64,000 nucleotides of DNA from an uncultured beta proteobacterium. GTDB taxonomy: Bacteria > Pseudomonadota > Gammaproteobacteria > Burkholderiales > SG8-39. The position numbers were made by a program, and so were the translations under genes. The notes beneath the pieces were generated by a model. It was not told where the DNA came from. It ran no database searches and saw only the letters and a program-made list of their open reading frames with translations. Numbering within the stretch: position 1 is the stretch's first letter; each line of letters begins with the position of its first letter. Location of the stretch: NCBI GenBank assembly GCA_963811085.1, contig CAWEPV010000013.1, forward strand, positions 987,304 through 1,051,303, read 5' to 3'. This document shows, in pieces, positions 1 through 64,000 of this stretch.

Positions 1-710
1 TCCGAGAGGTAGGTGATATGGCCGATCATGCGCGCAATGCGCAGCCCCCGCACCGGCACCACGCCCTTGTCGTAGTAGTGGCCGCCGTTGAAGTCGGGAT
101 CGGTGGTAATCGCCTGGCGCGCGACCTCGTTGAAGGCGATGTTCTGCGCCGAGAGCCTGGGCGTCGCCGCGATGACGAGCGAATGCCGGATGCGTTCCGG
201 GTAGGACAGCGTCCACTGCAGCGCCTGCATCGCGCCGAGGCTGCCGCCCATGACCGCGGCGAAGCGCTCGATGCCCAGGCGATCGGCCAGCCGCGCCTGG
301 GACTCGACCCAGTCCTCGACCGTGACCACCGGGAAATCGCCGCCCCAGGGTTTGCCGCTCGCCGGGTTCTGGCTCATCGGTCCGGTCGAGCCGTGGCAGC
401 CGGCGAGGTTGTTCACCCCGATGACGAAGAAGCGGCGCGTGTCGAGCGGCTTGCCCGGGCCCACCAGATTGTCCCACCAGCCGACCTCGTCCTCGCGCCC
501 GGCGTAGTAGCCGGCGACATGGTGCGAGGCGTTCAGCGCGTGGCACACCAGCACCGCGTTGGATTTCGCCGCGTTCAGCTCACCGTAGGCTTCGTAGGCC
601 AGCTCGAAGCCGGGCAGTTCAGCGCCGCTGCGCAGCTTGAGCGGCTCGTCGAAGCGCGCTTTCTGCGCCACGACTGCGCCAACCGAAGAGGAATCGTGAG
701 ATGCGTTCAA
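1..710 (-). CDS. metX: Homoserine O-acetyltransferase/O-succinyltransferase MetX, N-terminal ~235 aa; the gene continues beyond the window start
   Basis: Minus-strand translation reads [69 protein letters not shown]...[12 protein letters not shown], a typical MetX N-terminus with the GxSxG region. TTG start at 710-708. The listed plus-strand ORF 18..737 is its antisense artefact. Confidence 0.85.
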
Positions 711-800
711 TGCCGTCTCTTTAGCGGTATTTGTTAGGCGCCCGCAATCTGAACATCAAATCGGCGCCGATGCGGAATTATAGCCGAGCCGCGGCCTTGC

Positions 801-15196: not shown

Positions 15197-15809
15197 GCGT
15201 CGCACCCATTCGCTCGATCGCCTGCGCCGTCTCGTAAAGCGGCAACCCCACGACCCCGGAATAGCTGCCGCGGATGGCGACGATGAACTGCGCGGCACGG
15301 CCCTGGATCGCGTACGCGCCGGCCTTGTCGTCGGCCTCGCCGGTGGCGACGTACTGGCGGATCTCGTCTTCGTCGAGGGCGCGAAACTGCACCACGGTGC
15401 GCGAGAGCACGGCCTCGATGCGCTCGTCGTACTTCAGCACTACCGCGCTAAGCACTTCGTGCTCCCGGTCCGACAGCTCGGCCAGCATGCGCGCGGCTTC
15501 GGCCCGGTCGGCGGGCTTGCTTAAAATGCGCCCTTCGAGAGAGACGGTGGTGTCCGCGGCGAGCACGGGAGCGCGCGGCAGGTTGCGCTGCATGAGTCGC
15601 TTCCAGCCCATTTCGGCCTTCGCCAAGGCGACGCGCTCGACGTAGGCGCGCGGCGACTCGCCTTCGAGCACCTCTTCGCTTACCTCGTCGCCGTCGGAGC
15701 GCGCGCGGAACATGAGCAGGTGGAAGCGAACGCCGATCTGCGCCAGCAGCTCGCGCCGGCGCGGGCTGCGTGAAGCGAGGTACAGGCTGCGGTCGAGCGA
15801 AGCGAGCAC
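15174..15809 (-). CDS. maf: Maf-like nucleoside triphosphate pyrophosphatase
   Basis: 211 aa beginning LYLASRSPRRRELLAQIG (Maf signature). It overlaps rng in the conserved maf-rng arrangement. Confidence 0.8.
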   Translation of the reverse strand: MLASLDRSLYLASRSPRRRELLAQIGVRFHLLMFRARSDGDEVSEEVLEGESPRAYVERVALAKAEMGWKRLMQRNLPRAPVLAADTTVSLEGRILSKPADRAEAARMLAELSDREHEVLSAVVLKYDERIEAVLSRTVVQFRALDEDEIRQYVATGEADDKAGAYAIQGRAAQFIVAIRGSYSGVVGLPLYETAQAIERMGATRERRSPY

Positions 15810-52560: not shown

Positions 52561-52578
52561 TTGGTTCAGGTAGAAGCC

Positions 52579-52839
52579 ATGAACTGCGCGGAGCAACTCG
52601 TCGTCCTATTCGGTAGCCAGGCCGACGTCGCGCGCGCATTCCAACTCGATCGCGCGGTGGTCAACAACTGGGTCAAGTCGGGCTACGTCCCGGCGCGCTG
52701 GGCGACAGAGGTCGAACGCGTGACCCAGGGCCGCATCACCGCGGTCGAAATCCTTACCGAGGCGAGCGCCAAGAAGCCGGTGCGCGTGAAATCGCGCCCC
52801 GACGACGCATCGTTCGGCATCCTGTCGGAGACTGAGCCC
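52579..52839 (+). CDS. Cro/CI-type HTH module (YdaS/DUF1019-like) reading through, without a stop codon, into the downstream aminotransferase frame
   Basis: MNCAEQLVVLFGSQADVARAFQLDRAVVNNWVKSGYVPARWATEVERVTQGRITAVEIL matches the YdaS-type Cro-like pattern (GSQ..LA..LGV...V..W...G.IP..R...IE..T.G). No in-frame stop was found before the ATG at 52840. Confidence 0.45.
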
Positions 52840-54079
52840 ATGAATACCTACGCACCGTCCAAGCGCATCCATTCGTTCCATCCGCCGCAGCGCACGCTGA
52901 TGGGCCCGGGGCCGACCGAGATTCACCCGCGCGTGCTCACCACCATGAGCCAGCCGGCGATCGGCTACCTCGACCCGATCTTCGTCGAGATGATGGAGGA
53001 GCTGAAGTCGCTGCTGCGCTACGTCTACCAGACCAAGAACCCGCTTACCTTCCCGATCTCGGGCCCGGGCTCGGTCGGGATGGAGTACTGCTTCGTCAAC
53101 CTGGTCGCGCCGGGAGACAAGGTGATCGTGTGCATCAACGGCGTGTTCGGCGGCCGCATGCTCGAGAACGTCATCCGCTGCGGCGGCGTTCCGGTGGTGG
53201 TCGAGGACAGGTGGGGCGAACCGGTCGATCCGCACAAGGTCGAGGATGCGCTGAAGAAGAACAAGGACGCCAAGATCGTCGCCTTCGTGCACGCCGAGAC
53301 CTCGACCGGCTGCCAGTCGGACGCGCAGGAGATCGCCCAGTGTCGCGCACAAGCACGGCGCGCTGGTCATCGTCGACGCGGTCACCTCGCTCGGCGGCAC
53401 GCCGGTGCGGGTCGACGAGTGGGAAATCGACGCGATCTATTCGGCCAGCCAGAAATGCCTGTCGTGCACGCCCGGCCTGTCGCCGGTGTCGTTCTCCGAG
53501 CGCGTGGTCGAACGCGTCAAGGCGCGCAAGGACAAGATCCACAGCTGGTTCATGGACATGAATTTGCTGCTGGGCTACTGGGGCGCCACCACCCGCACCT
53601 ACCACCACACAGCGCCCACCAATTCGCTGTTCGCGCTGCACGAGGCGCTGCTGCTGATCCGCGAGGAGGGGCTCGAGAACAGCTGGGCGCGCCACCACCG
53701 CCACCACGTCGCGCTCAAGTCGGGGCTCGAGGCGATGGGGCTGAAATTCCTGGTCAAAGAGGAATACCAGCTGCCGCAGATGAACGCGGTGCTGTGCCCG
53801 GAGGGCGTGAACGAGGCCGACGTGAGGAAGACCCTGCTGGGCGAATTCGGCATCGAGATCGGCGCCGGGCTCGGGCCGCTCGCGGGCAAGATCTGGCGCT
53901 TCGGCCTGATGGGCTACTCGTGCCGGCCGGACAACGTGATGCTGTGCCTGTCGGCGCTAGGCTCGGTGCTCGAGGACATGGGCCTGCCGGTGCACGTCGG
54001 CGACGCGGAAGCCGCGGCGCACGGCGCCTACGCCAGAATGCACGCGAGCGACGCGCAGCGCAAGAAACGCGCCGCCTGA
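52840..54079 (+). pseudogene. Alanine-glyoxylate / serine-pyruvate aminotransferase (class V, AGXT-like), disrupted by a frameshift near 53340-53350
   Basis: The N-part in frame 1 (MNTYAPSKRIHSFHPPQRTLMGPGPTEIHPRVL...HAETSTGCQSDAQEIAQ) and the C-part in frame 2 (HKHGALVIVDAVTSLGGTPVRVDEWEIDAIYSASQKCL...) each align along AGXT. The junction lies at cagtgtcgcgcacaagcacggc. Confidence 0.8.
54010..54078 (+). repeat. Copy A of a ~70-bp imperfect direct repeat (last 22 codons of the aminotransferase)
   Basis: gccgcggcgcacggcgcctacgccagaatgcacgcgagcgacgcgcagcgcaagaaacgcgccgcc recurs at 60325-60395 with a few substitutions (both encode AAHGAYA.MHASDAQRKKRAA). Confidence 0.6.
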
Positions 54080-54083
54080 GGGC

Positions 54084-54260
54084 CTAAAGCCCCGGGCGCT
54101 GCCAGATGGTGCTCGTCGGGCCGGCCTGGTTGAGCGTGTAGAAGTGCAGCCCGGTGCGCCGCCGCTGAGCAGGCGGTCGCACAGCTCGGTGACGACGTCG
54201 AGGCCGAAGGCGCGCATCGATGCGCTGTCGTCGCGGAAGCTCTCGAGCTTGAAGCGCATC
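54084..54260 (-). pseudogene. metF: 3'-terminal fragment of a methylenetetrahydrofolate reductase (metF) gene, itself frameshifted
   Basis: Minus-strand pieces IPRWMRFKLESFRDDSASMRAFGLDVVTELCDRLLSGG and GLHFYTLNQAGPTSTIWQRPGL* match the MetF C-terminus (IPAWM...; DFHFYTLNRAE...GL*). No upstream MetF body is present. Confidence 0.7.
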
Positions 54261-54366
54261 CAGCGCGGGATCTCGGCGCCGCGGGCGCGCTGGAGTCGTG
54301 CACGTCAATGCAGTACAGTGTCTGCCGTCTCGGGCGACACATCGGGCCGGATAAGCGCCAGCAAGC

Positions 54367-56262
54367 ATGACCGAAGACGGCTATCCTGACGCGCTGCCGC
54401 GCGGGTACCACCTGCACTGGTACCTGCTCGAGCGGGTGCTGGGGCAGGGCGGCTTCGGCATCACCTATCTGGCGCGCGACACCAACCTCGATCAGCGCGT
54501 CGCGATCAAGGAATATCTCCCGATCGACGTCGCCACGCGCCGCAACGACGCGACCGTGCGCGCGCGCACCGAGGCGCACGACGAGCGCTACCGCTGGGGG
54601 CTCGAGAGGTTCATCCGCGAGGCCCGCACGCTGGCGCGCTTCGACCACCCAAATGTCGTGCGCGTGCTCTCGGTGTTCGAGTTCAACAACACCGCCTACA
54701 TGGTGATGCGCTTCGAGGAGGGCAGCAACCTCGCCACCATCCTCGAGCAGCGCGGCACGCTGCCGGAAGGCGAGTTGCTGCGCATCCTGCTGCCGATCCT
54801 CGACGGGCTCGAGCTGGTGCACAACGCGGGGTTCATCCACCGCGACATCAAGCCGGACAACATCCACGTGCGCGCCGACGGTAGCCCGGTACTGCTCGAT
54901 TTTGGCTCCGCGCGCCAGCCCGTGGGCCATTCGCCCAGCTTGACCATCCTGGTCGCCCCCGGCTACGCGCCGTTCGAGCAGTACTACAGCAGCGGCGAGA
55001 GCCAGGGTCCGTGGAGCGACATATACGGGCTTGGGGCGACTTGCTACCGCGCCATCTGCGGCACGCCGCCGATGGACGCGATCGCACGCAGCAAGGGCGT
55101 CCTCGGCAGCGCGCGCGACGTGCTGGCGCCCGCAACCGCGGTCGGCGCGGGACGCTATTCGCCGCGCCTGCTCAAGGCGATCGATCACGCGCTCGAATTT
55201 ACCGAGCGCGATCGCCCGCAGAGCATCGCCGAATGGCGTCGGGAGCTGCTCGGCGAAGGGCAGCAGGCCGCGCTGGCGCCAGCCGCGCCGTCCGCGGCCG
55301 CGGCGCGCAGCGAGCGGCCAGCCCCCGCCTCCGGCGGAGGCTGGCCGGTTTTCCGTACGGTCCTGGCTGCGGCGGTGGCGCTCGTCGTGGTGGCCGTGCT
55401 GCTGCGTTTCTATCCGTTCTCGGGCGGTGGCAAGAGCGGGCCGCCGCCCGAGACCGCGCCCGATCCTGCAGCGCAGCTCAAGGAACGACTCGCTAAGGTC
55501 GAGCAGCAGCTCGCCGAGGAGCGGCAGCGGCAGGCCGAGGCGCTCGCGCAGCAGCAGGCGGAGGAGCGCCAGCGCGTGGAGGCGGAGCGCAAGCGCGCAT
55601 TCGAGGCCGAAGCCGCGCGTAAACGCGAGGCGGAGCAAAAGAAGCTTGCCGAGGAGCGCCAGCGCAAGCTCGCGCAGCAGGCGGAGGCCGAGCGCAAGCG
55701 CCAGGCGGAGCAAAAGAAGCATGCCGAGGAGCGCCAGCGCAAGCTCGCGCAGCAGGCGGAGGCCGAGCGCAAACGGGCTGAGCAGCAGGCTCGCCAGCAG
55801 GCAGTCCAAAGCGCGAAGCCAGCCGCAGCGCCTCCGAGCTCGGCCGCGCTGCTGGAGAAGGCCGACCGCGACTACACCGCCGGCAACTACGCCGAAGCGC
55901 TTGCGGCGCTCAAGCCGCTGGCCGCGCGCGGCAACGCCAACGCCCAGCTCAGGCTCGGCAAGTCCTACGCGGAGGGGCACGGCGTTGCGCACGACGACGC
56001 GCGCGCGGCGATCTGGTATCGGAAGGCCGCGTTGCAGGGCAACCCGGAGGCGCAGTTGCAGCTCGGCGAGCTGTACGCGAGCGGGCGCGGCGTGCCGCAT
56101 AGCGATTTCGAGGCTTATGTGTGGTTGACCGCTGCGGTCCGCGGCGGCAACGCGGCGGCCAAGGCGCTGCAGGGGCGTGTCGCGAAGTTGCTGCAGCCTG
56201 TCGAAGCCGAGCAAGCGGGCAAGCTGGTGACCAATCTGCCGCTCCCCGACGCCGCCAAGTAA
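54367..56262 (+). CDS. Ser/Thr protein kinase with a single TM, a coiled-coil repeat region and C-terminal Sel1/TPR-like repeats
   Basis: Hanks kinase motifs GQGGFGITYLA, VAIKEY, HRDIKPDNI, DFGSA and APGYAPFEQ. TM segment VLAAAVALVVVAVLL. Repeats AEERQRKLAQQAEAERKR. Sel1-like region YRKAALQGNPEAQLQLGELYASGRGV. Confidence 0.85.
   Translation: MTEDGYPDALPRGYHLHWYLLERVLGQGGFGITYLARDTNLDQRVAIKEYLPIDVATRRNDATVRARTEAHDERYRWGLERFIREARTLARFDHPNVVRVLSVFEFNNTAYMVMRFEEGSNLATILEQRGTLPEGELLRILLPILDGLELVHNAGFIHRDIKPDNIHVRADGSPVLLDFGSARQPVGHSPSLTILVAPGYAPFEQYYSSGESQGPWSDIYGLGATCYRAICGTPPMDAIARSKGVLGSARDVLAPATAVGAGRYSPRLLKAIDHALEFTERDRPQSIAEWRRELLGEGQQAALAPAAPSAAAARSERPAPASGGGWPVFRTVLAAAVALVVVAVLLRFYPFSGGGKSGPPPETAPDPAAQLKERLAKVEQQLAEERQRQAEALAQQQAEERQRVEAERKRAFEAEAARKREAEQKKLAEERQRKLAQQAEAERKRQAEQKKHAEERQRKLAQQAEAERKRAEQQARQQAVQSAKPAAAPPSSAALLEKADRDYTAGNYAEALAALKPLAARGNANAQLRLGKSYAEGHGVAHDDARAAIWYRKAALQGNPEAQLQLGELYASGRGVPHSDFEAYVWLTAAVRGGNAAAKALQGRVAKLLQPVEAEQAGKLVTNLPLPDAAK
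55631..55780 (+). repeat. Two tandem 75-bp coding repeats (~96% identical) inside the kinase gene
   Basis: gcggagcaaaagaagc(t/a)tgccgaggagcgccagcgcaagctcgcgcagcaggcggaggccgagcgcaa... occurs twice back to back, giving AEQKK(L/H)AEERQRKLAQQAEAERKR twice. Confidence 0.8.
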
Positions 56263-56300
56263 CGGTAGTATTCCGCCCAAGCGGATCGAGGAGGCAAGGC

Positions 56301-56930
56301 ATGGCGAGCGCGATGCCCGGGTCGTGCGTCGTGTACCGATGCGCGCAGCTGTGCGCGATGATGCTCGTGGCGCTCGCTTCGGGCTGCGTGAGCGAGCAGC
56401 AGAAGATCAGCGCAACACGGGATGTGAACGCCGTGTTCCGCACGGAGTACGAGCGTGTCCTGGCCGAGGACGGAACGCACATCTACCACGTACCGCGCGA
56501 CGAGGCATTCCAGGCCTTGCGCGTCGCTCTGGGCGGGCTCGGCATGCGGCTCGCCGAGCAATCGCCCGATCTCGGGTATTTGAGCGTGTATGCTTCCGCA
56601 CCCGATCCGCTCACGCGCGACGAGTGGCTGCGGGCGGCACAGGCGGACCTGCCGAAGTTTCGCGGCATACTCGAGCAGCACCTGGGCCTTGCGGCATGGT
56701 TCGTATCGTTCGAGCCGCAGGGCCTCGACGTCGTCATCAACGCGACGACGATCCAGGTGCGCGGCGGAACGGCCGTCTCGCTCACCATGCGCATGCGCGA
56801 AGTCGCGCCGCCGAAGTCGGGTTATCCGCGCCGCGAGTATGCCCCGCCGACGGCCGTGCGCATGGGGCTGCGCAAGATCTGGGGCGCGCTGGAGCGAGAG
56901 CTTCCAGCCGCATCGGGCCGGCGCTCCTGA
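56301..56930 (+). CDS. Lipoprotein of unknown function
   Basis: ATG at 56301 with a GGAGG RBS; lipobox LASGC; about 190 aa of mature protein with no recognisable domain. Confidence 0.6.
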   Translation: MASAMPGSCVVYRCAQLCAMMLVALASGCVSEQQKISATRDVNAVFRTEYERVLAEDGTHIYHVPRDEAFQALRVALGGLGMRLAEQSPDLGYLSVYASAPDPLTRDEWLRAAQADLPKFRGILEQHLGLAAWFVSFEPQGLDVVINATTIQVRGGTAVSLTMRMREVAPPKSGYPRREYAPPTAVRMGLRKIWGALERELPAASGRRS

Positions 56931-56942
56931 TCCAGCCGGTGC

Positions 56943-59900
56943 TCAGCTTTGCGCGGGCGCCCCGAGGCTCGCGTACACCGCCTGCGTCTCGGGCGAAGGC
57001 ATGATCTTCAGCCGCGTCGACAGCACAGTGCGCAGCCGCTCATAGGTGGCGCGCGCCTCGGACGGGTCCGCGCCGCGCTGGTAGCACTGCATGAGGCTTC
57101 GATATGGCGCCTCGAACAACGCATCCGCCTCGATGATGCGCAAGTAGCAGTCGACGGCTGCCTCGCGCTGCCCTGACTCCTCGTGGCGCTTGGCAACCCG
57201 GCCGAGGCAGCGCAGCAGGCGCGAGCGGATCTGCTCGCGGCAGGCGATATAGCTCGGCTGCTCGGACTCGTCAGGCAGAAACGGCCCGCGGTAGAGCGCG
57301 AACGTTTCGTCGGCCAGCGCCTGCAGGGCCGGCAGGCCCGCCTCGGCGGCCGGTGCGCGCAGCGCCTCGTCGAGCGCCGCCAGCACGCACTCGAGCGCCC
57401 AGGTATCGACCCAGATGAGCGCCGGGTTGAGGCTCAGGCGCGCGTCGCGCAGCACGAGCGCCTCGTCGTCGCCGAGCAGCCGGCGCAGCCGGTGCAGGGT
57501 GGCGGTGAGCGACTTGTGGGCGTAGTCCGCCTCGACGTGCGGCCACAAGGCGTCGGCCAGCTGATCGGCGCGCACATTCTGCCCACCCAGGGCAACGAGC
57601 ACCTTCATCAGCTCCATGGGCCGGCCAGGGGCCTTTCCCGAGAACTCGACGGACACGGTCTGGCGCAGGAGCTGAAACCCCCCGAGCAGGTGCACGTGAA
57701 ATGGCCAGGGCCAATCACGCAGGCGCAGTGGGGCAGGCTGCGGCAGCAGCCGGCGCGAGCGCACCAACGCGCGCGCATACTCGGTCTCGATGCCGTGGCG
57801 CAGGGCCAGCGCGCAAACGTCGGCGACGGCCTGCGAGCGCCACCAGGGGGCGTGCCGGAAGCCGTGCTCGCGTCCAAGCGCGAAGGCGCTCGCGACCGAC
57901 CCGAGCGCGGCGCGCTCGTCGTTCATCGCGGCAGCCGCCTCGGCCGCCGCGAGCTGCACGATGAAGCGCAGCAGGACGCTGCGCATCCGGTCCGCGAGCG
58001 CCTGCGCGCTTCTCAGCTGTGCTTCGCAGCCGCGCTGGTCGCCCGTACGGGCGAGCATGTCGGCAAGCGCCGCGCGCCCCAGGCATTCTAGCCAGGGGAT
58101 CCCCGCTTCGACGGCCAGCTGCAACGCGCTCTTCGCGTCGAGGCTTGCGCTCGCCACATCGCCTTCGAGCGCCGCGAGCCAGCCGCGCAGGTAATGCACC
58201 AGCGCGCGGTCGGCGCGGCGCAGGCGCGCGCCGCCGCCCTCCAGCGCGCGCAGCTCGTCCCGCGCCCCGTCCCGGTCGCCGGAGCCGAGCGACGCCGCCA
58301 TCGAAATGAGGCGCAACCAGTCGTCGTAGACATGCACGCCCTCGCGCTCGGCCGCCAGGAGCGCGCTGCTCGCGACCTCGCGCGCGCGCGAGTGCGCGCC
58401 GGTAAGTAAGTAGTGCAGCGCCGCGGCGAGAGCGTTGGCGGTCGCATCGAGCGCAGGCAGGCCGGGAACCGGCGCGACCAGCGTGTCGGCCGCCGCCTCG
58501 GCGGCGACGAGATTGCCCTGCATCAGCGCCACCATGGCCCGCGCGACGGCCAGCTCGGCCCCTTCGAGCCAGTCGCCGAGCTCGGCGTTGCCGGGATCGC
58601 GCAGCAGCAGCGCGGCGATCAGTAGCGCGCGCGCCTCCGCGTCGCGGCCCTCGCTTCCGCCCTCGCGCAGCAGGCCCGCGAGCACGACGGTCCAGTGATC
58701 GAGCTGCGCGAGATCGTCGAACTCCAGGATCGTCGCCTTGATCAGGCCGCAACAGCTGCGCATCATCCCGCGACGGTCGGTGGCATCGCGAAACCTCCCG
58801 AATGCTTGCTCGAGGTAGCGCCGCGCCGCCCTGGGGCTCGCGTGCAGCCGGCAGGCGCCGGAGGCGTAGAGCAGCTCCGCATCGGCGTGCAACAGCGCCG
58901 GCGGCAGCAGCTCCAGCCATCCGCCGAGTGTCTCGCTGCGCCCTTGATCGAGCATGAGCTGCGCCTCGGCGGCGGCGATACGGGCGACCTGCGCCCAGTC
59001 GCGGCACTCTACGAGCAGCGACACCGCGTCCTCGGTCTGCCCGGCTTCGCGCAGCAGCGCCGCCGCGCGCTGCAGCTGCTCGGTCCCGAGCACTTCGGGC
59101 TGCTCAAGCGCGGCCCTGCTGCGCAGGAACTCGCGCAGCAGCGGATGCAGCTGGTAGATGCGCCCCTCTTCCGACAGCACCTCGCTCACGAAGTAGTCGT
59201 TGCGCGCCAGGTTGAGCAGCAGCCGTTCCGCCTTCGGCTCCTCGGCGAGCGTCTGCGCCACTTCCGCGGTCATGCGCGGCAGGCATGCGACGTGCGCCAG
59301 AAAGCGCTTCGTGTCGGGCTCGAAGCGGTCGTAGATCTCGCCGGCGAGGTAATCGAAGATCACCTGGGGAGCCGCGTCCTCGGGCAGCTCCGCGACCTGG
59401 CCGGAGAGCTTGGTGTGCTCGAGCATCAGCACCAAGCCGGCCGCCCAACCCTGCGTGCGCTCGTGCAGCTGCGAGGCAGCCTCCGCCGAGAGCTTCTGTC
59501 CGCGCAGCTGGGCGATCGCGCCCAGCTCATCCGGCGCGATACGCAACTCTTCCCAGCCGACGCACGCCATCTCGCCCGCCACGCGCATGCGCGCCAGGGC
59601 CCCCGGTGGCTCGCTACGGCTGGTCACAATCACCGTGCATTGCTTGGGTATCTGCGCGAATGCGGCTTCAAGCACCGCGTGCAGCGTGCTCTCGGGCGGC
59701 ACCTCGTGCAGGCTGTCGAGCACCAGCGCAAAGGGCGGCTTGGCGCGCGCGAACAGCTGGCGGAAGAACAGGCGCGCGAACGATGCGACATCCGAGCGGT
59801 ACTGCGGCGTGAACGCGGGAAACTCGCGACTCTGGCCGCCCTCGAGCCTGCGCGCGGCGTGCCCGAGATAGTGGAAGAACGTCGCCACGTCCGCGTCGTC

Positions 59901-60251
59901 GGGATCGACCTGGTACCACAGGCAGCGGTAACCGCGCGCTTCGACGTAGCTCGCGGCAAGGGTGGTCTTGCCCGCGCCTGGCGGCCCGGAAATCCAGGCC
60001 ACCGTGCGCCCCGCAGCCCCGTCGAGGCGCGCGAACAGGCGCTGCCTCGGAACGATGGAGCCGATCGCCGGGCGCGTGGTCTTGGCGAAAGCGACGGTGC
60101 GCTGCCCAGCCTTAACCACGCGGCCCCCTCCCTTGACGTTCCATCGCCTCACGCTGCACGGGCCCGCGGCCCGCCCGGCATCGATCATACCCACCAGACG
60201 GCTCAGCTGCCCAGATGCACCAGATACTTCGCGCCGTCGGAGAACGTGCAC
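56943..60251 (-). CDS. Large transcriptional regulator: MalT-like AAA/STAND ATPase + TPR-like helical repeats + C-terminal SARP module (OmpR-type winged helix followed by BTAD)
   Basis: N-terminus FAKTTRPAIGSIVPRQRLFARLD...ISGPPGAGKTTLAASYV (MalT-like Walker A); a long Ala/Leu-rich helical repeat region; C-terminus LLGGFQLLRQTVSVEF...RADQLADALWP (trans_reg_C) followed by the BTAD-like FALYRGPFLPDESEQPSYIACREQIRSRLLRCL. The true start may lie inside the listed ORF. Confidence 0.8.
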   Translation of the reverse strand: MHVLRRREVSGASGQLSRLVGMIDAGRAAGPCSVRRWNVKGGGRVVKAGQRTVAFAKTTRPAIGSIVPRQRLFARLDGAAGRTVAWISGPPGAGKTTLAASYVEARGYRCLWYQVDPDDADVATFFHYLGHAARRLEGGQSREFPAFTPQYRSDVASFARLFFRQLFARAKPPFALVLDSLHEVPPESTLHAVLEAAFAQIPKQCTVIVTSRSEPPGALARMRVAGEMACVGWEELRIAPDELGAIAQLRGQKLSAEAASQLHERTQGWAAGLVLMLEHTKLSGQVAELPEDAAPQVIFDYLAGEIYDRFEPDTKRFLAHVACLPRMTAEVAQTLAEEPKAERLLLNLARNDYFVSEVLSEEGRIYQLHPLLREFLRSRAALEQPEVLGTEQLQRAAALLREAGQTEDAVSLLVECRDWAQVARIAAAEAQLMLDQGRSETLGGWLELLPPALLHADAELLYASGACRLHASPRAARRYLEQAFGRFRDATDRRGMMRSCCGLIKATILEFDDLAQLDHWTVVLAGLLREGGSEGRDAEARALLIAALLLRDPGNAELGDWLEGAELAVARAMVALMQGNLVAAEAAADTLVAPVPGLPALDATANALAAALHYLLTGAHSRAREVASSALLAAEREGVHVYDDWLRLISMAASLGSGDRDGARDELRALEGGGARLRRADRALVHYLRGWLAALEGDVASASLDAKSALQLAVEAGIPWLECLGRAALADMLARTGDQRGCEAQLRSAQALADRMRSVLLRFIVQLAAAEAAAAMNDERAALGSVASAFALGREHGFRHAPWWRSQAVADVCALALRHGIETEYARALVRSRRLLPQPAPLRLRDWPWPFHVHLLGGFQLLRQTVSVEFSGKAPGRPMELMKVLVALGGQNVRADQLADALWPHVEADYAHKSLTATLHRLRRLLGDDEALVLRDARLSLNPALIWVDTWALECVLAALDEALRAPAAEAGLPALQALADETFALYRGPFLPDESEQPSYIACREQIRSRLLRCLGRVAKRHEESGQREAAVDCYLRIIEADALFEAPYRSLMQCYQRGADPSEARATYERLRTVLSTRLKIMPSPETQAVYASLGAPAQS

Positions 60252-60324
60252 ATGCCGGCACCCTGGCGCGCGTTGGCCATCCGATAGCCGCAGCTCAGGA
60301 ACGCGCCGCTGCGGCTGTGGGCGC

Positions 60325-60395
60325 TCGCCACGCCGCGGCGCACGGCGCCTACGCCAGCATGCACGCCAGCGACGCGCAGCGGAAGAAGCGCGCGG
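60325..60395 (+). repeat. Copy B of the ~70-bp direct repeat (orphan duplicate of the aminotransferase 3' end)
   Basis: gccgcggcgcacggcgcctacgccagcatgcacgccagcgacgcgcagcggaagaagcgcgcggcc. No aminotransferase body is upstream of it. Confidence 0.6.
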
Positions 60396-60401
60396 CCTAT
60401 G

Positions 60402-61233
60402 CTAGTTCTTCGCCGAAGCTGCAGCCGTAAAGCGCCCGGCGAGATCGGGCTGGGAGCCGTAGCGCTCGAGGGTAGGCTGCATCGTCTGCGCGAGCGCATC
60501 GAGCCGTTCGGCGGGCGCAGGGTGGGTCTTGAACATCAGCGCGAGGCTTGAGTCCGCGGGATTGATCGCCTCGAGCGTCTGCAGTACCGCGGGCAGGCCG
60601 TAGGCGTCGTAGCCGGCGCGGGCCGCGATCACCACGCCGAGGCGGTCGGCCTCGAGCTCGTCGGACTTGTCGAGCCCGCGCGCGTAAAGCTCGGTGCCGG
60701 CGGAGATCAGCTTGTTGCGCGCCTCGCTGTTGCCGCGGTTGGCGAGCGCGAGCGAGAGGGCGTCCGCGGCGAGGCCGGTCCTCGCGTTCTTCTGCATCGC
60801 CGCCAGGTGATGCTTGCGCAGCACGTGCGAGATCTCGTGCGCCAGCACGCCGGCCAGCTCGGCTTCGCTGCGCAGGCGCGCGTACAGGCCGCGGGTGATG
60901 AACACGTTGCCGCCCGGTGTGGCGAAAGCGTTCACGGTGTCGGTATCGAGCACGCCGAAATGCCACGGCAGGCCGGGGCGCTCGGTATGCAGCGCGAGCC
61001 AGCGCCCGACGCTGTTGACGTAGCGCTGCAGGCGCTCGTCCGGTACCAGCGGCGCCGAGCAGACGCGCCGCCACGGCGCGCCCGATCGAGATCTCCTGCG
61101 GCTCGTCGACCTCGCTGCTCGCCTGCTGGATCTTCTTGACCGTGCCGACCAGCCTGTTGAGGTCGAGTGAGAACTGCGCCTGGGCGGGAGGCGCGGCTGC
61201 GGCGAGTAGCAAGGCGCAGAGGGCGGCGCGCAC
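60402..61233 (-). pseudogene. M48-family zinc metalloprotease (YcaL/BepA-like), disrupted by a frameshift near 61035-61045
   Basis: The N-part frame gives signal peptide MRAALCALLLAAAAPPAQA...EPQEISIGRAVAARLLGAA. A second frame continues PLVPDERLQRYVNSVGRWLALHTERPGLPWHFGVLDTDTVNAFATPGG...HEISHVL (HExxH). The junction lies in a ggcgccgc run. Confidence 0.7.
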
Positions 61234-61289: not shown

Positions 61290-61537
61290 AAACGCCTTCG
61301 CCGCATCTTCGCCAGGCTCTTTTCGTCGATGTCGATCATGACGATGTCCGGGTCCGGCGCGAGCCGCACGGCGTGCAGCCGCACGAACAAGTCGACCAGG
61401 CGGTTCTCGAGCGGGGCGGAGAGATGCAGCCAGAATATTTCCGCCGCTGCGAGCGCGCCGAGGAATAGGGGTCGGTTCAACGTGATCTGCGCGAACGGTA
61501 GTGCTGCAGAGTGCCCGCGCGGCGGCGCGGGCGTCAA
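61290..61537 (-). pseudogene. Truncated CHASE2-domain gene fragment (N-terminal ~80 codons only)
   Basis: MTPAPPRGHSAALPFAQITLNRPLFLGALAAAEIFWLHLSAPLENRLVDLFVRLHAVRLAPDPDIVMIDIDEKSLAKM matches a CHASE2 N-terminus (TM helix, then ...D..F.LR....P..IV.IDIDE.SL). The sequence then turns to low-complexity text and runs into the M48 gene. Confidence 0.5.
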
Positions 61538-64000
61538 GCCGGAAGCTGGTAGCCCTTGTCGCCGAACAGCCGCAGGCAGGCGTCCACGGCGTCCGCATCG
61601 AAGAGCTGGCCGCGTCCGTTGGCGATCTCTTCCAGCGCGGCGTCCAGGCCGCGCGCCGGACGGTAAGGACGGTGCGAGCCCATCGACTCGACGACGTCGG
61701 CAACCGCAAGGATGCGCGCCTCGAGGATGATCTGCTCGCCCTTGAGGCCCTGCGGGTAGCCGCTGCCGTCGAGGCGCTCGTGGTGCTGCCGCGCCACTTC
61801 GGCGATCGGCCAGGGGAAGCGGATGTCCTTCAGGATGTCGTATCCGGACTGCGCGTGCATCTTGACGATCTCGTACTCCGCCGGCTGAAGGCGCGTCGGC
61901 TTGGACAGGATTTCGGCCGGCACCGAGATCTTGCCGATGTCGTGCAGGCTGCCGGCGATGTCCAGTCCGCGGCAGCGCTCGGCGTCCAGCCCCATCTCGT
62001 CGGCGATCGCCGCCGCGAGCTTGCCGACCCGGAGTTCGTGGCCCGCCGTGTAGGGGTCGCGGATCTCGACCATCGTCGACACCGCCCTGATGGTGCCGGT
62101 CATGGTTTCCTCGAGCTGCGCCATGTACTCTCGCACGCGATTGCCCGAAGTCTTGTACTCGGAGATGTCTTCTACCTGGACCACCAGGTGGCGCAGCTTG
62201 CCCAGCGAATCGCAGACGCGCGCGGCGTTGGCCCTGATCCAGACCGTCCGTCCGTCCTTGCGCACGATCTGTCCCTCGGTGCGCACGGCCTCGCGCTCAC
62301 CACTGAGCATCTGCGCGAACAGCTTCAGCAGCGGCTCGACACTTTTCGGCGCAAGGAACTTCTGGAACGGCTCGCCGACCAGCTCGGCTGCAGGGTATCC
62401 CGTGATGGCGCAGATCGAGCGATTGACTTTAACGGTGCGCCCGTCGGTCCCAATGAGGACGATGCCGATGCTGGCGCTTTCGAACGCCTGCTTGAACTGC
62501 TCTTCGCTGTCGAGCAGTTTGCGCTCGGCCTCGAGCCGGCGGTCGTTTTCGGCGAAGCGCCCCATGGCAAAGCCCACGTCGCGCGCCGTCTGCTCGAACA
62601 GCTGCACGATTTCGGCGTCGAAGAAGCCGGGAATCGCCGAGTTGTAGCTCAGGGTGCCGACAATCTCGTCCTCGACCCGCAAAGGAAAGGCCGCCGACGT
62701 CGCGACGCGCAATTCCCTCGCGGCCGCGCGCCATGGTTCGAGGGCGGGATCATGCATGAAGTCTTCAATGATGACTGTGCGGCCCTCGCGGATCGCTGTC
62801 CCGATCGGGCCACGGCCGCGCGGGTCATTGGCGTCGGTGCTGATGTCGGCGTTCGCCAGATAGGTCTCGAGCCCGCGTGACATGGCGACCGGCCGGACTT
62901 TGCCGCTCCCCTTCTCGACCATGCTGATCCAGGCGCCAACCAGACCGCCTTCGTCGACCGCGACGCGGCAGGTCTCACGCATCACTTCGTCCAGCGAGTT
63001 CGAACGCACCAGTGCTTCGTTGGTTTGCCACAGGGTCTGATACAGGCGATTGAGCGATTGAATGCGCGCTTCCGTGCTCTTGCGCGCCGAGATATCGTGA
63101 GCGACAGCGTGAAAAAAGCCGCGCCCGTCGACTTCGAAGTAGCGCGCGCTGATCTCGACCGGAAAGGTCGAGCCGTCCGCCCGCTGGTGGACAGACTCGA
63201 ACATCAGCTCGCCGCGCTTCTCGATTTCGCGCTTGTCACGTGCCAGTGATTCGAGCGAGTCGGGAGCCCGCAGCTCCGCAATGCGCTTGCCGAGCAGCGC
63301 TGAGTGCGGGTACCCGTATATTGATACGGCCCGCTCGTTCGCTTCGAGGATCCGCCCGTCGGCGTCGTACAGAAAGGTCGGGTCGCGCGCGTAGGGCGCC
63401 AGCTGTCGGAAGTGTTCCTCGAGCGCGGCGCGCTCGAGCGCAGCCTTTTGCTGGAACAGCACGTCCGCGAACTGCCGACGGCGCTCGAGCCAGAACACCG
63501 CCAGGGCGGCGAGCGTGATCAGCAGCACCGCCCACGCGGCGATGATCTGTGTGCTCCGCGTCAGCGGCGCGAGCGCCTCGGCGCGATCGATCTTCACCAG
63601 AATACGCCAGTCGGTCCCGCTGATCGGTGCGTAGGCATAAAGCACCGGCACGCCGCGGCGATCGACGCCTTCGGCTACGCCGTGCCGGCCCTTGAGTGCC
63701 AACATGGCGGGAAGGTCGCGCCTATGCAGCGCGACCGGTGGCGACGCGCCCTCCGTGCCGCGCCTGAGCGGGCTGAGGTGCACCACGGTGTTGCCCTGGG
63801 TGCGGATGAGCACGCTTTCGCTGGAGCTGAAGCTGGACAGCGGATCCTCCAGCAGCGAGTACAGCACGTGGCGCGGGTCCCAGTACAAGACGATGACGTC
63901 CTCGCTAACGCGCGCCGCTGCTTCGAGCTCGCGGCTCGGCACCACGAATGCCAGGCGCAGGCCTGTGCCCGCGCCGAAGCGCTGCGGCCCGAGCATCACC
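61534..64000 (-). CDS. PAS/GAF-containing HD-GYP phosphodiesterase (c-di-GMP), N-terminus possibly beyond the window end
   Basis: C-terminal HD-GYP domain (GHELRVGKLAAAIADEMG...LHDIGKISVPAEIL...HHERLDGSGYPQGL); upstream GAF and PAS regions and a TM segment (IIAAWAVLLITLAALAVFWL). Confidence 0.8.
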   Translation of the reverse strand, partial: VMLGPQRFGAGTGLRLAFVVPSRELEAAARVSEDVIVLYWDPRHVLYSLLEDPLSSFSSSESVLIRTQGNTVVHLSPLRRGTEGASPPVALHRRDLPAMLALKGRHGVAEGVDRRGVPVLYAYAPISGTDWRILVKIDRAEALAPLTRSTQIIAAWAVLLITLAALAVFWLERRRQFADVLFQQKAALERAALEEHFRQLAPYARDPTFLYDADGRILEANERAVSIYGYPHSALLGKRIAELRAPDSLESLARDKREIEKRGELMFESVHQRADGSTFPVEISARYFEVDGRGFFHAVAHDISARKSTEARIQSLNRLYQTLWQTNEALVRSNSLDEVMRETCRVAVDEGGLVGAWISMVEKGSGKVRPVAMSRGLETYLANADISTDANDPRGRGPIGTAIREGRTVIIEDFMHDPALEPWRAAARELRVATSAAFPLRVEDEIVGTLSYNSAIPGFFDAEIVQLFEQTARDVGFAMGRFAENDRRLEAERKLLDSEEQFKQAFESASIGIVLIGTDGRTVKVNRSICAITGYPAAELVGEPFQKFLAPKSVEPLLKLFAQMLSGEREAVRTEGQIVRKDGRTVWIRANAARVCDSLGKLRHLVVQVEDISEYKTSGNRVREYMAQLEETMTGTIRAVSTMVEIRDPYTAGHELRVGKLAAAIADEMGLDAERCRGLDIAGSLHDIGKISVPAEILSKPTRLQPAEYEIVKMHAQSGYDILKDIRFPWPIAEVARQHHERLDGSGYPQGLKGEQIILEARILAVADVVESMGSHRPYRPARGLDAALEEIANGRGQLFDADAVDACLRLFGDKGYQLPA

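Follow-up and report, generated by a model that had tools for sequence, protein, structure and literature searches.

Organization of the locus

We analysed a 64,000-nt window of contig CAWEPV010000013.1 from an uncultured beta proteobacterium, in which three adjacent genes encode a predicted MalT-like regulator with a C-terminal SARP unit (REG), a Hanks-type kinase (STK) and a lipoprotein (LipoA). A second lipoprotein, LipoB, adjoins this module in related loci. Coordinates follow the numbering of the window, and REG residues follow that of the 1102-codon open reading frame (ORF) 56943..60251 on the minus strand, which is real and is counted from the farthest start. The true start is likely the GTG at 60119, giving a product of 1058 aa, because homologues begin near an invariant AFAKTTRP and a Shine-Dalgarno sequence, GGAGGGG, precedes this GTG. 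The module is composed of the following elements.

54307..54320, plus strand: −10-like element ATGCAGTACAGTGT of the STK promoter, about 45 nt upstream of the STK start; the same element was recognised in other loci by reading the sequences
54367..56262, plus strand: STK, Hanks-type Ser/Thr kinase of 631 aa, directly upstream of lipoA
56301..56930, plus strand: LipoA, 209 aa, lipobox LASGC, no Pfam family
56943..60119, minus strand: REG, 1058 aa, with a MalT-like STAND ATPase, a helical sensor and a C-terminal SARP unit; the frame is open to 60251
56967..57404, minus strand: BTAD domain of REG, residues ~950-1095 (Pfam BTAD, AfsR/EmbR profile match, predicted local distance difference test score (pLDDT) 85-90)
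57411..57626, minus strand: OmpR-type winged helix of REG, residues ~876-947 (weak Trans_reg_C match, colinear AfsR/EmbR profile match)
57747..59114, minus strand: all-helical TPR-like repeat sensor of REG, residues ~380-835 (AlphaFold2 (AF2) model, Foldseek match to MalT domain III)
59127..60074, minus strand: NBD-HD-WHD nucleotide-binding oligomerisation module of REG, residues ~60-375 (MalT matches, invariant columns, pLDDT 80-90)
60184..60213, minus strand: candidate sigma-70-like promoter of REG (TGGGCA, 18-nt spacer, TATGAT), ~65 nt upstream of the REG start, a consensus match only

The lipoA gene ends 12 nt before the REG stop codon on the opposite strand, so the two genes converge tail to tail, and lipoA is probably co-transcribed with the STK gene. 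An earlier note on this DNA had placed a lipoprotein gene close to the regulator gene and a kinase gene next beyond; to this correct description we add that REG lies on the strand opposite to both. The REG promoter is the sole such consensus match in 53900-60600. All three genes are intact in the window, and all family-invariant residues are kept.

Domain architecture of the regulator

The N-terminal part of REG resembles the maltose regulator MalT. The NCBIfam MalT model NF003420 aligned with residues 64-460 (E 3e-49) at 168 bits, not reaching the equivalog cut-off of 537, and PDB entry 8bob (E. coli MalT) matched with an E of 2e-26. A Pfam scan assigned NPHP3_N to residues 79-212 (37 bits, above cut-off), with AAA_16 below cut-off, and gave no NB-ARC match; the ATPase is MalT/NPHP3_N/AAA_16-like and is placed before the SARP unit. 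Walker A reads GPPGAGKTT. In Walker B, ALVLDS, Asp179 is invariant and the second acidic residue is absent; the surrounding stretch (residues ~174-183, ~59703-59732, minus strand) reads ALVLDSLH, and the family consensus is LDNLH. As Ser or Asn stands across the family in place of the second acidic residue (DD) of MalT, ATP hydrolysis by these proteins may be slow.

The AF2 model of REG, built from 20 homologues, has a mean pLDDT of 77.7. It consists of the ATPase module (~60-375), the helical repeats (~380-835), a low-confidence linker (~838-875), the winged helix, and the helical BTAD. Foldseek aligned the model with chain C of 8bob (E 1e-13, template modelling score 0.76) and with MalT domain III (1hz4, E 2e-4). 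With the full-length model, MalT and TPR proteins dominated and no SARP structures were returned; hence, the SARP assignment rests on sequence profiles. Specifically, Pfam BTAD (PF03704) covers residues 962-1095 at 55.2 bits versus a cut-off of 22.1, and a profile of the last ~260 residues is colinear with two complete SARP units, those of AfsR (8hvr, E 1.9e-5) and EmbR (2fez, E 3e-3). The Pfam scan found no GerE/LuxR match, and the C-terminus is made up of a winged helix followed by BTAD.

These results bear out the earlier note in its central claim, a MalT-like ATPase joined to a C-terminal winged helix and BTAD. The check that it had proposed for the output end comes out in its favour, with a BTAD and a winged helix in the last ~250 residues of REG. 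Its statement that the order is inverted relative to classical SARPs is likewise correct, the SARP unit occupying residues ~876-1095 of 1102, behind the ATPase and the helical repeats. No other domain of REG is as conserved as the winged helix (76% identity inside the main clade, 55% towards the outgroup), whose recognition helix, ADYAHKSLTATLHRLRRLL, hardly varies in the family. Taken together, REG would be a STAND-type transcription activator, in which a MalT-like switch and sensor control a C-terminal SARP unit.

The kinase and LipoA

STK has a kinase domain (~21-295; Pfam Pkinase, E 6e-36), one transmembrane helix (~333-358), a charged coiled-coil linker and Sel1 repeats (~510-620). The kinase domain is predicted to be cytoplasmic and the Sel1 repeats periplasmic. 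In the alignment, G26-G31 (glycine loop), K48 (VAIK), H158-R159-D160, D178-F179-G180 and the activation-loop T193 are invariant. Because all catalytic residues are invariant, kinase activity appears to be under selection. STK is not an AfsK orthologue: it scores 37.5 bits with NF053615 against a cut-off of 1300, and its C-terminal region consists of the transmembrane helix and Sel1 repeats. LipoA is predicted to adopt a BamC-like helix-grip fold.

Conservation of the module

A one-genome-per-species scan yielded 189 relatives of REG, from which 80 loci (labelled L001 onward) were retained, each with at most 10 kb of flank. All 80 come from metagenome-assembled Beta- or Gammaproteobacteria, a few of them with implausible bin labels, and the carriers include Burkholderiales, Casimicrobiaceae, Aquincola, Caldimonas, Polaromonas, Acidiferrobacterales and Ectothiorhodospiraceae. 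Presence was counted with tblastn, in the final run with composition-based statistics off, since that option suppressed kinase-domain matches. An early run had suggested an STK reduced to its Sel1 part in about 11 loci; inspection of the ORFs showed full kinases there, and this candidate variant was rejected as a BLAST artefact.

We compared the 20-kb surroundings of the module in the window with the 80 loci, ORF by ORF. Only REG, LipoA and STK are conserved, and the flanking ORFs match in 0-3 loci. STK is present, convergent with and downstream of REG, in 53 of the 59 loci whose flank measures 2.9 kb or more; LipoA accompanies REG in 60 of the 69 loci where the flank reaches far enough. The regulators of the six STK-less loci are the most divergent (33-41% identity). 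The reverse survey, on metagenome contigs, started from the kinase and counted as orthologues those with at least 70% identity in the catalytic domain or a full-length match. All 13 orthologous loci with enough flank carry both LipoA and REG, and kinase paralogues of at most 62% identity carry neither. Hence, the STK orthogroup was never seen without REG where the flank sufficed, and the linkage holds across 40-96% identity. The neighbourhood survey called for by the earlier note therefore came out in favour of a conserved kinase linkage in both directions.

The architecture of REG is not rare. The protein collection contains more than 1300 full-length homologues, many of which carry the JGI name 'MalT / SARP family'. 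Searched alone, the C-terminal unit retrieved 2179 cluster representatives at E ≤1e-30; among the best 150 of these, nearly all have the unit at the end of proteins of ~1040-1120 aa or are fragments. Thousands of database clusters thus have the MalT–SARP architecture, annotated by domain only.

LipoB and a putative operator in related loci

The ORF fragment just upstream of REG in the window (60206..60347, minus strand) matched ORFs in 41 loci. These encode LipoB (e.g. L001 9585-10049), a lipoprotein of ~155 aa without a Pfam family and with ~2000 database homologues, all named 'hypothetical'. Its gene is always a neighbour of the REG module, which it adjoins in 42 loci in several arrangements: directly upstream of REG, divergent from REG, divergent from STK, or upstream of STK. 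Some loci have a copy on both sides. In the outgroup loci L070, L076 and L080, whose regulators have no kinase, lipoB lies directly downstream of the regulator gene.

Of 40 lipoB genes, 38 are preceded, about 100 nt ahead of the start codon, by three direct repeats with an 11-nt period and the consensus GTAAGCcATCt GTAAGccanCc GTaAGcgg. Examples of the pattern GTAAG(N6)GTAAG(N6)GTAAG are found at L023 5698-5730, L006 9304-9336 and L001 9473-9505. With a threshold of at least 13 of the 15 core positions, the 1.31 Mb of loci contain 76 matches, compared with 0-2 in block shuffles. The pattern was replicated in metagenome loci with orthologous kinases, of which 166 kb contain 12 sites. No operator was found in ~515 kb beside paralogous kinases, where two apparent exceptions turned out to be fragments of true orthologues. 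A hexamer nAnnAT (mostly GATCAT or GATGAT) follows 16 nt after the repeat block, with fixed spacing, in 29 of 29 sequences, and the aligned lipoB promoter sequences have no −35-like element. Taking nAnnAT as the −10 element would put the repeats at about −61 to −33, with the proximal copy overlapping −35. SARPs bind heptamer direct repeats, often three, with 4-nt spacers (11-nt spacing), at or overlapping −35 (PMC10972967). The operator-like repeats are thus conserved and module-specific in the related loci and match this heptamer and ~11-nt-period geometry. Conservation of the winged helix fits with this, because the operator is conserved across the whole REG family. From these patterns we hold with good confidence that REG, operator and lipoB belong together as regulator, site and target.

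The repeats are not confined to lipoB. In L045, L064, L065 and L072 they lie directly upstream of the REG gene, and other genes found behind them encode an OmpA-like barrel, a PLD-like protein, a GDSL lipase, a HisKA_3 sensor kinase, a TatT lipoprotein and unknown lipoproteins.

The lipoB leader has a feature of its own. When the leaders are folded one by one, 20 of 21 form a stem-loop where the transcript is predicted to begin; its sequence varies, and GGAGG comes after it. The stem-loop is ~45 nt before the ATG (e.g. L007 ~15560-15600), and its stems include CCAGGGC/GCCCTGG, CAGGC/GCCTG and CACGCG/CGCGTG. No consensus structure emerged when the MAFFT-aligned leaders were folded together with RNAalifold, and no Rfam family matches the leader. 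The hairpin may stabilise the mRNA at its 5' end or be a regulatory element.

Proposed pathway and its alternatives

The architecture of REG, the exclusive linkage of three or four genes, and the conserved, module-specific operator-like repeats are the observations on which our interpretation is built. From them we infer that REG binds the repeats and activates rather than represses, that STK signals to REG, possibly by phosphorylation, and that the signal is of envelope origin. In this pathway, STK and LipoA would sense the envelope and feed into a MalT–SARP protein that activates genes for lipoproteins and other envelope components, and we give it a probability of about 0.55. An envelope or periplasmic signal would alter the activity of STK, with LipoA, probably co-transcribed, as part of the input. 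STK would then act on REG, most simply through Ser/Thr phosphorylation as AfsK does on AfsR, or else through membrane tethering or release of REG. The MalT-like ATPase and the helical sensor would gate the SARP unit, which would bind the three GTAAG(C) heptamer repeats and recruit RNA polymerase to a promoter without −35. As output, lipoB would be switched on, along with other envelope genes in some genomes and REG itself in some.

The steps differ in strength. Functional coupling of STK to REG is probable. Given the invariant catalytic residues and the precedents of AfsK-AfsR and PknH-EmbR, direct phosphorylation of REG by STK would be the most economical link; we put it at an even chance or slightly below. 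The most specific version, a four-part envelope pathway of Beta- and Gammaproteobacteria in which a periplasm-sensing STK together with LipoA phosphorylates REG to control triple-GTAAG envelope and lipid genes, is tentative, with the odds somewhat against it.

Several results weigh against the proposed pathway. As regulators without a kinase exist that have lipoB and the operator, STK is not needed for the core regulator-target pair. REG is on the strand opposite to STK and lipoA and therefore is not co-transcribed with them. We found no Ser/Thr column specific to the kinase-linked clade of REG, the conserved Ser/Thr residues being present in the kinase-less clade too, and a domain-by-domain comparison of kinase-linked and kinase-less REG proteins gave no clade-specific divergence. 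An FHA domain is missing from REG, and we noticed no phosphatase gene among those of the module. On the DNA-binding side, the Pfam Trans_reg_C match at residues 878-930 scores 21.7 bits, below the cut-off of 26.2, and the proximal repeat of the lipoB promoters ends 20 nt from the −10-like hexamer (8 nt is usual for SARPs) and is farther from −10 than in the case of AfsR by one helical turn. In the window itself, the best site of a position weight matrix scan has 6.2 bits, compared with at least 20.5 for true sites and 5-15 for shuffles. The function proposed for the family as a whole derives from sequence comparison and predicted structure.

Among the alternatives, the one that survives best is that REG senses a cytoplasmic ligand or protein, as MalT senses maltotriose, while STK and LipoA have other substrates or belong to the regulated envelope function. 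The operator and lipoB retained by L070, L076 and L080, and the missing clade-specific Ser/Thr, would be expected if REG did not need STK, and its own promoter, opposite strand and large MalT-like sensor domain point the same way. Against this stand the tight, exclusive, two-way linkage over the whole identity range with nothing else conserved nearby, and an STK orthogroup never found apart from REG given enough flank. We consider this explanation unlikely, though a serious competitor to the envelope pathway.

In a second alternative, STK or a complex of LipoA would hold REG at the membrane and free it upon a signal, as MalK does with MalT, phosphotransfer not being the key event. It would account for the lack of a conserved acceptor residue in REG, and there is a precedent in MalT, which is governed by protein partners binding its ATPase module (8bob; work cited in PMC11301090). 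The invariance of all catalytic residues of STK speaks for a catalytic role instead, and such non-catalytic control is improbable.

An anti-phage STAND (Avs-like) or kinase-based defence system is a very remote prospect: STAND ATPases and Ser/Thr kinases do occur in defence and the STK domain matches PADLOC kinase models such as PD-T4-6 and mad6, but these matches are confined to the generic catalytic domain, PADLOC models match neither REG nor LipoA, the output of REG is a DNA-binding SARP unit rather than a nuclease or protease, and the conserved operator precedes lipoprotein genes. A cluster-situated activator of secondary-metabolite genes, the role in which SARP units are best known from antibiotic clusters (PMC10972967), is hardly credible either, as conserved biosynthetic genes are lacking around the module, the flanks vary between genomes, and the genes preceded by the operator encode the lipoproteins, barrel, PLD-like protein, lipase and sensor kinase named above.

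Comparison with known systems

The earlier note had called the locus an AfsK/AfsR-like pair. A kinase does lie beside a SARP-type regulator; the likeness is nevertheless one of analogy and not of homology, given the MalT-type ATPase of REG and the 37 bits of STK versus the 1300 required of AfsK. Both systems combine a Ser/Thr kinase with a regulator of ~1000 aa that has a SARP unit, a STAND ATPase and helical repeats, and the heptamer direct repeats with an 11-nt period known as SARP sites have a putative counterpart in the module. AfsK phosphorylation raises the DNA binding of AfsR (PMC10972967, PMC11301090), the protomers of which bind side by side (PMC11301090). In AfsR, however, the SARP unit is N-terminal and followed by NB-ARC and then TPR repeats, whereas in REG it is C-terminal and preceded by a MalT-type ATPase. 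STK has a transmembrane helix, and its Sel1 repeats take the place of the repeat region of AfsK. The module further differs in its lipoprotein partner, its hosts among the Proteobacteria and its inferred envelope targets.

MalT provides the other half of the comparison. The N-terminal ~400 residues of REG are homologous to the MalT ATPase module and are followed by a sensor like domain III, in the same order of sensor and switch first and DNA binding last. MalT responds to maltotriose and is sequestered by MalK. Its output is a LuxR/GerE helix-turn-helix, whereas REG ends in an OmpR-type winged helix and BTAD, and the second acidic residue of Walker B (DD) in MalT is Ser or Asn in the REG family.

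In Mycobacterium tuberculosis, the membrane Hanks kinase PknH, which has an extracytoplasmic sensor, phosphorylates the SARP-type regulator EmbR. The C-terminal profile of REG aligns with EmbR, and a membrane kinase is present here too. EmbR, in contrast, is a small protein with an N-terminal SARP unit, and it binds the kinase through an FHA domain, which REG does not have. The SARP-LAL proteins PimR, FilR and SanG are hybrids of a SARP unit with a LAL-type ATPase and in this respect resemble REG; they differ in an N-terminal SARP unit, in being actinobacterial and in lying within biosynthetic clusters, and a kinase partner is not described for them. PimR binds three heptamer repeats with 4-nt spacers (PMC10972967). 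Promoters of the PhoB/OmpR type also have tandem direct repeats with an 11-bp period in place of −35. Unlike those regulators, REG has no receiver domain and no His-Asp phosphorelay, and would be controlled by a STAND ATPase and probably by a Hanks kinase. By its predicted domains REG works like a large SARP or LAL regulator, yet belongs to neither class.

Every class listed in a 2024 review of SARPs has an N-terminal SARP unit (PMC10972967). The earlier note took the locus for a system not yet described, and our literature search agrees: it returned no paper describing a C-terminal-SARP MalT-like regulator or the module, in a scope with subscription journals mostly outside it, so that an older mention (e.g. 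in a STAND classification) is possible. The individual domains are ordinary; it is the conserved circuit with its predicted operator that merits testing. Missing from the earlier note were lipoB and the triple GTAAG repeat as output, the loss of this output from the window, and the abundance of the architecture.

Both SARPs and their regulation by Ser/Thr kinases are usually regarded as peculiar to Actinobacteria and linked to the making of antibiotics. In the present module, this DNA-binding unit sits on the other end of a MalT-type switch, and many uncultured proteobacteria of soil and water retain it together with a membrane kinase and lipoproteins. Comparison of the loci turns this into a testable circuit with a sensor, a switch, an operator sequence and a target gene. 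Such a circuit would open the way to studying how Hanks kinases of Gram-negative bacteria, few of whose substrates are known, signal to transcription factors, the gating of a C-terminal SARP unit by a STAND ATPase, and the role of two large uncharacterised lipoprotein families. Should the four-part version of the pathway hold, no SARP-type regulon with a defined operator would have preceded it outside Actinobacteria, and it would also be the first Hanks-kinase-to-STAND-regulator pathway in Gram-negative bacteria.

Lost putative target and rearranged flanks in the window

The surroundings of the module in the window contain three further features.

54075..54286, minus strand: 3' fragment of metF, ~70 codons with a one-base frameshift, between the aminotransferase-like gene and the STK promoter
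60206..60347, minus strand: 3' remnant of lipoB, ~47 codons; the 5' part, promoter and triple GTAAG repeat are missing and several conserved residues are substituted
60332..60398, plus strand: the later of two 67-nt direct repeats; it shares 93% identity with the first (54011-54077) and duplicates the 3' end of the aminotransferase-like gene

A pattern search of the 64-kb window for the triple GTAAG repeat with up to 3 mismatches gave 0 sites. The two 67-nt repeats bracket a 6.3-kb block that consists of the metF fragment, STK, lipoA, REG and the lipoB remnant; the second copy abuts the remnant and overlaps its breakpoint by 16 nt. By this position, the repeat appears to mark a rearrangement junction, as a relic of illegitimate recombination, through which the local target, lipoB with its operator, would have been lost. 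Because the local target is destroyed, any remaining targets of REG would lie outside the window.

The closest relatives of the locus are L026 (94% nucleotide identity) and L001 (87%), by comparison with which the flanks of the window are rearranged. L001 has the order metF, lipoB, REG, lipoA, STK, with an intact metF, and an S-adenosylhomocysteine riboswitch lies further upstream on the same strand (L001 6148-6217). In L026, lipoB is lost. We attempted a single clean rearrangement scenario for the flanks of the window, and none was derivable.

The aminotransferase-like gene itself is a 508-aa ORF (52561-54087, plus strand) with a Cro/YdaS-type helix-turn-helix (Pfam, residues 11-64) and a class-V aminotransferase region (NCBIfam, residues 112-262). 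It adjoins the module in L001, L002 and L026 as well. It recalls MocR/GabR-type regulators, from which it differs in the helix-turn-helix and in the aminotransferase class.

On the other side, an M48 metallopeptidase gene (60402-61233, minus strand) is apparently broken into two frames: that of ORF 60397-61233 contributes an N-terminal part resembling a signal peptide, and ORF 60402-60953 contributes Pfam M48 with HEISH. It is either a pseudogene or the result of an assembly indel, and no relative among the loci compared has this gene at this position. The frameshifts in the M48 gene and the metF fragment may reflect real decay or assembly error; the three core genes have none. Beyond the M48 gene, 61534-63999 (minus strand) encodes a large signalling protein with PAS, GAF, PAS and HD-GYP-type (HD_5) domains, probably a cyclic di-GMP phosphodiesterase, which is not beside the module in any relative. 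Far from the module, 700-777 (minus strand) matches the Rfam SAM_alpha riboswitch with 38.9 bits versus a gathering score of 36; the rest of the sequence looks betaproteobacterial.

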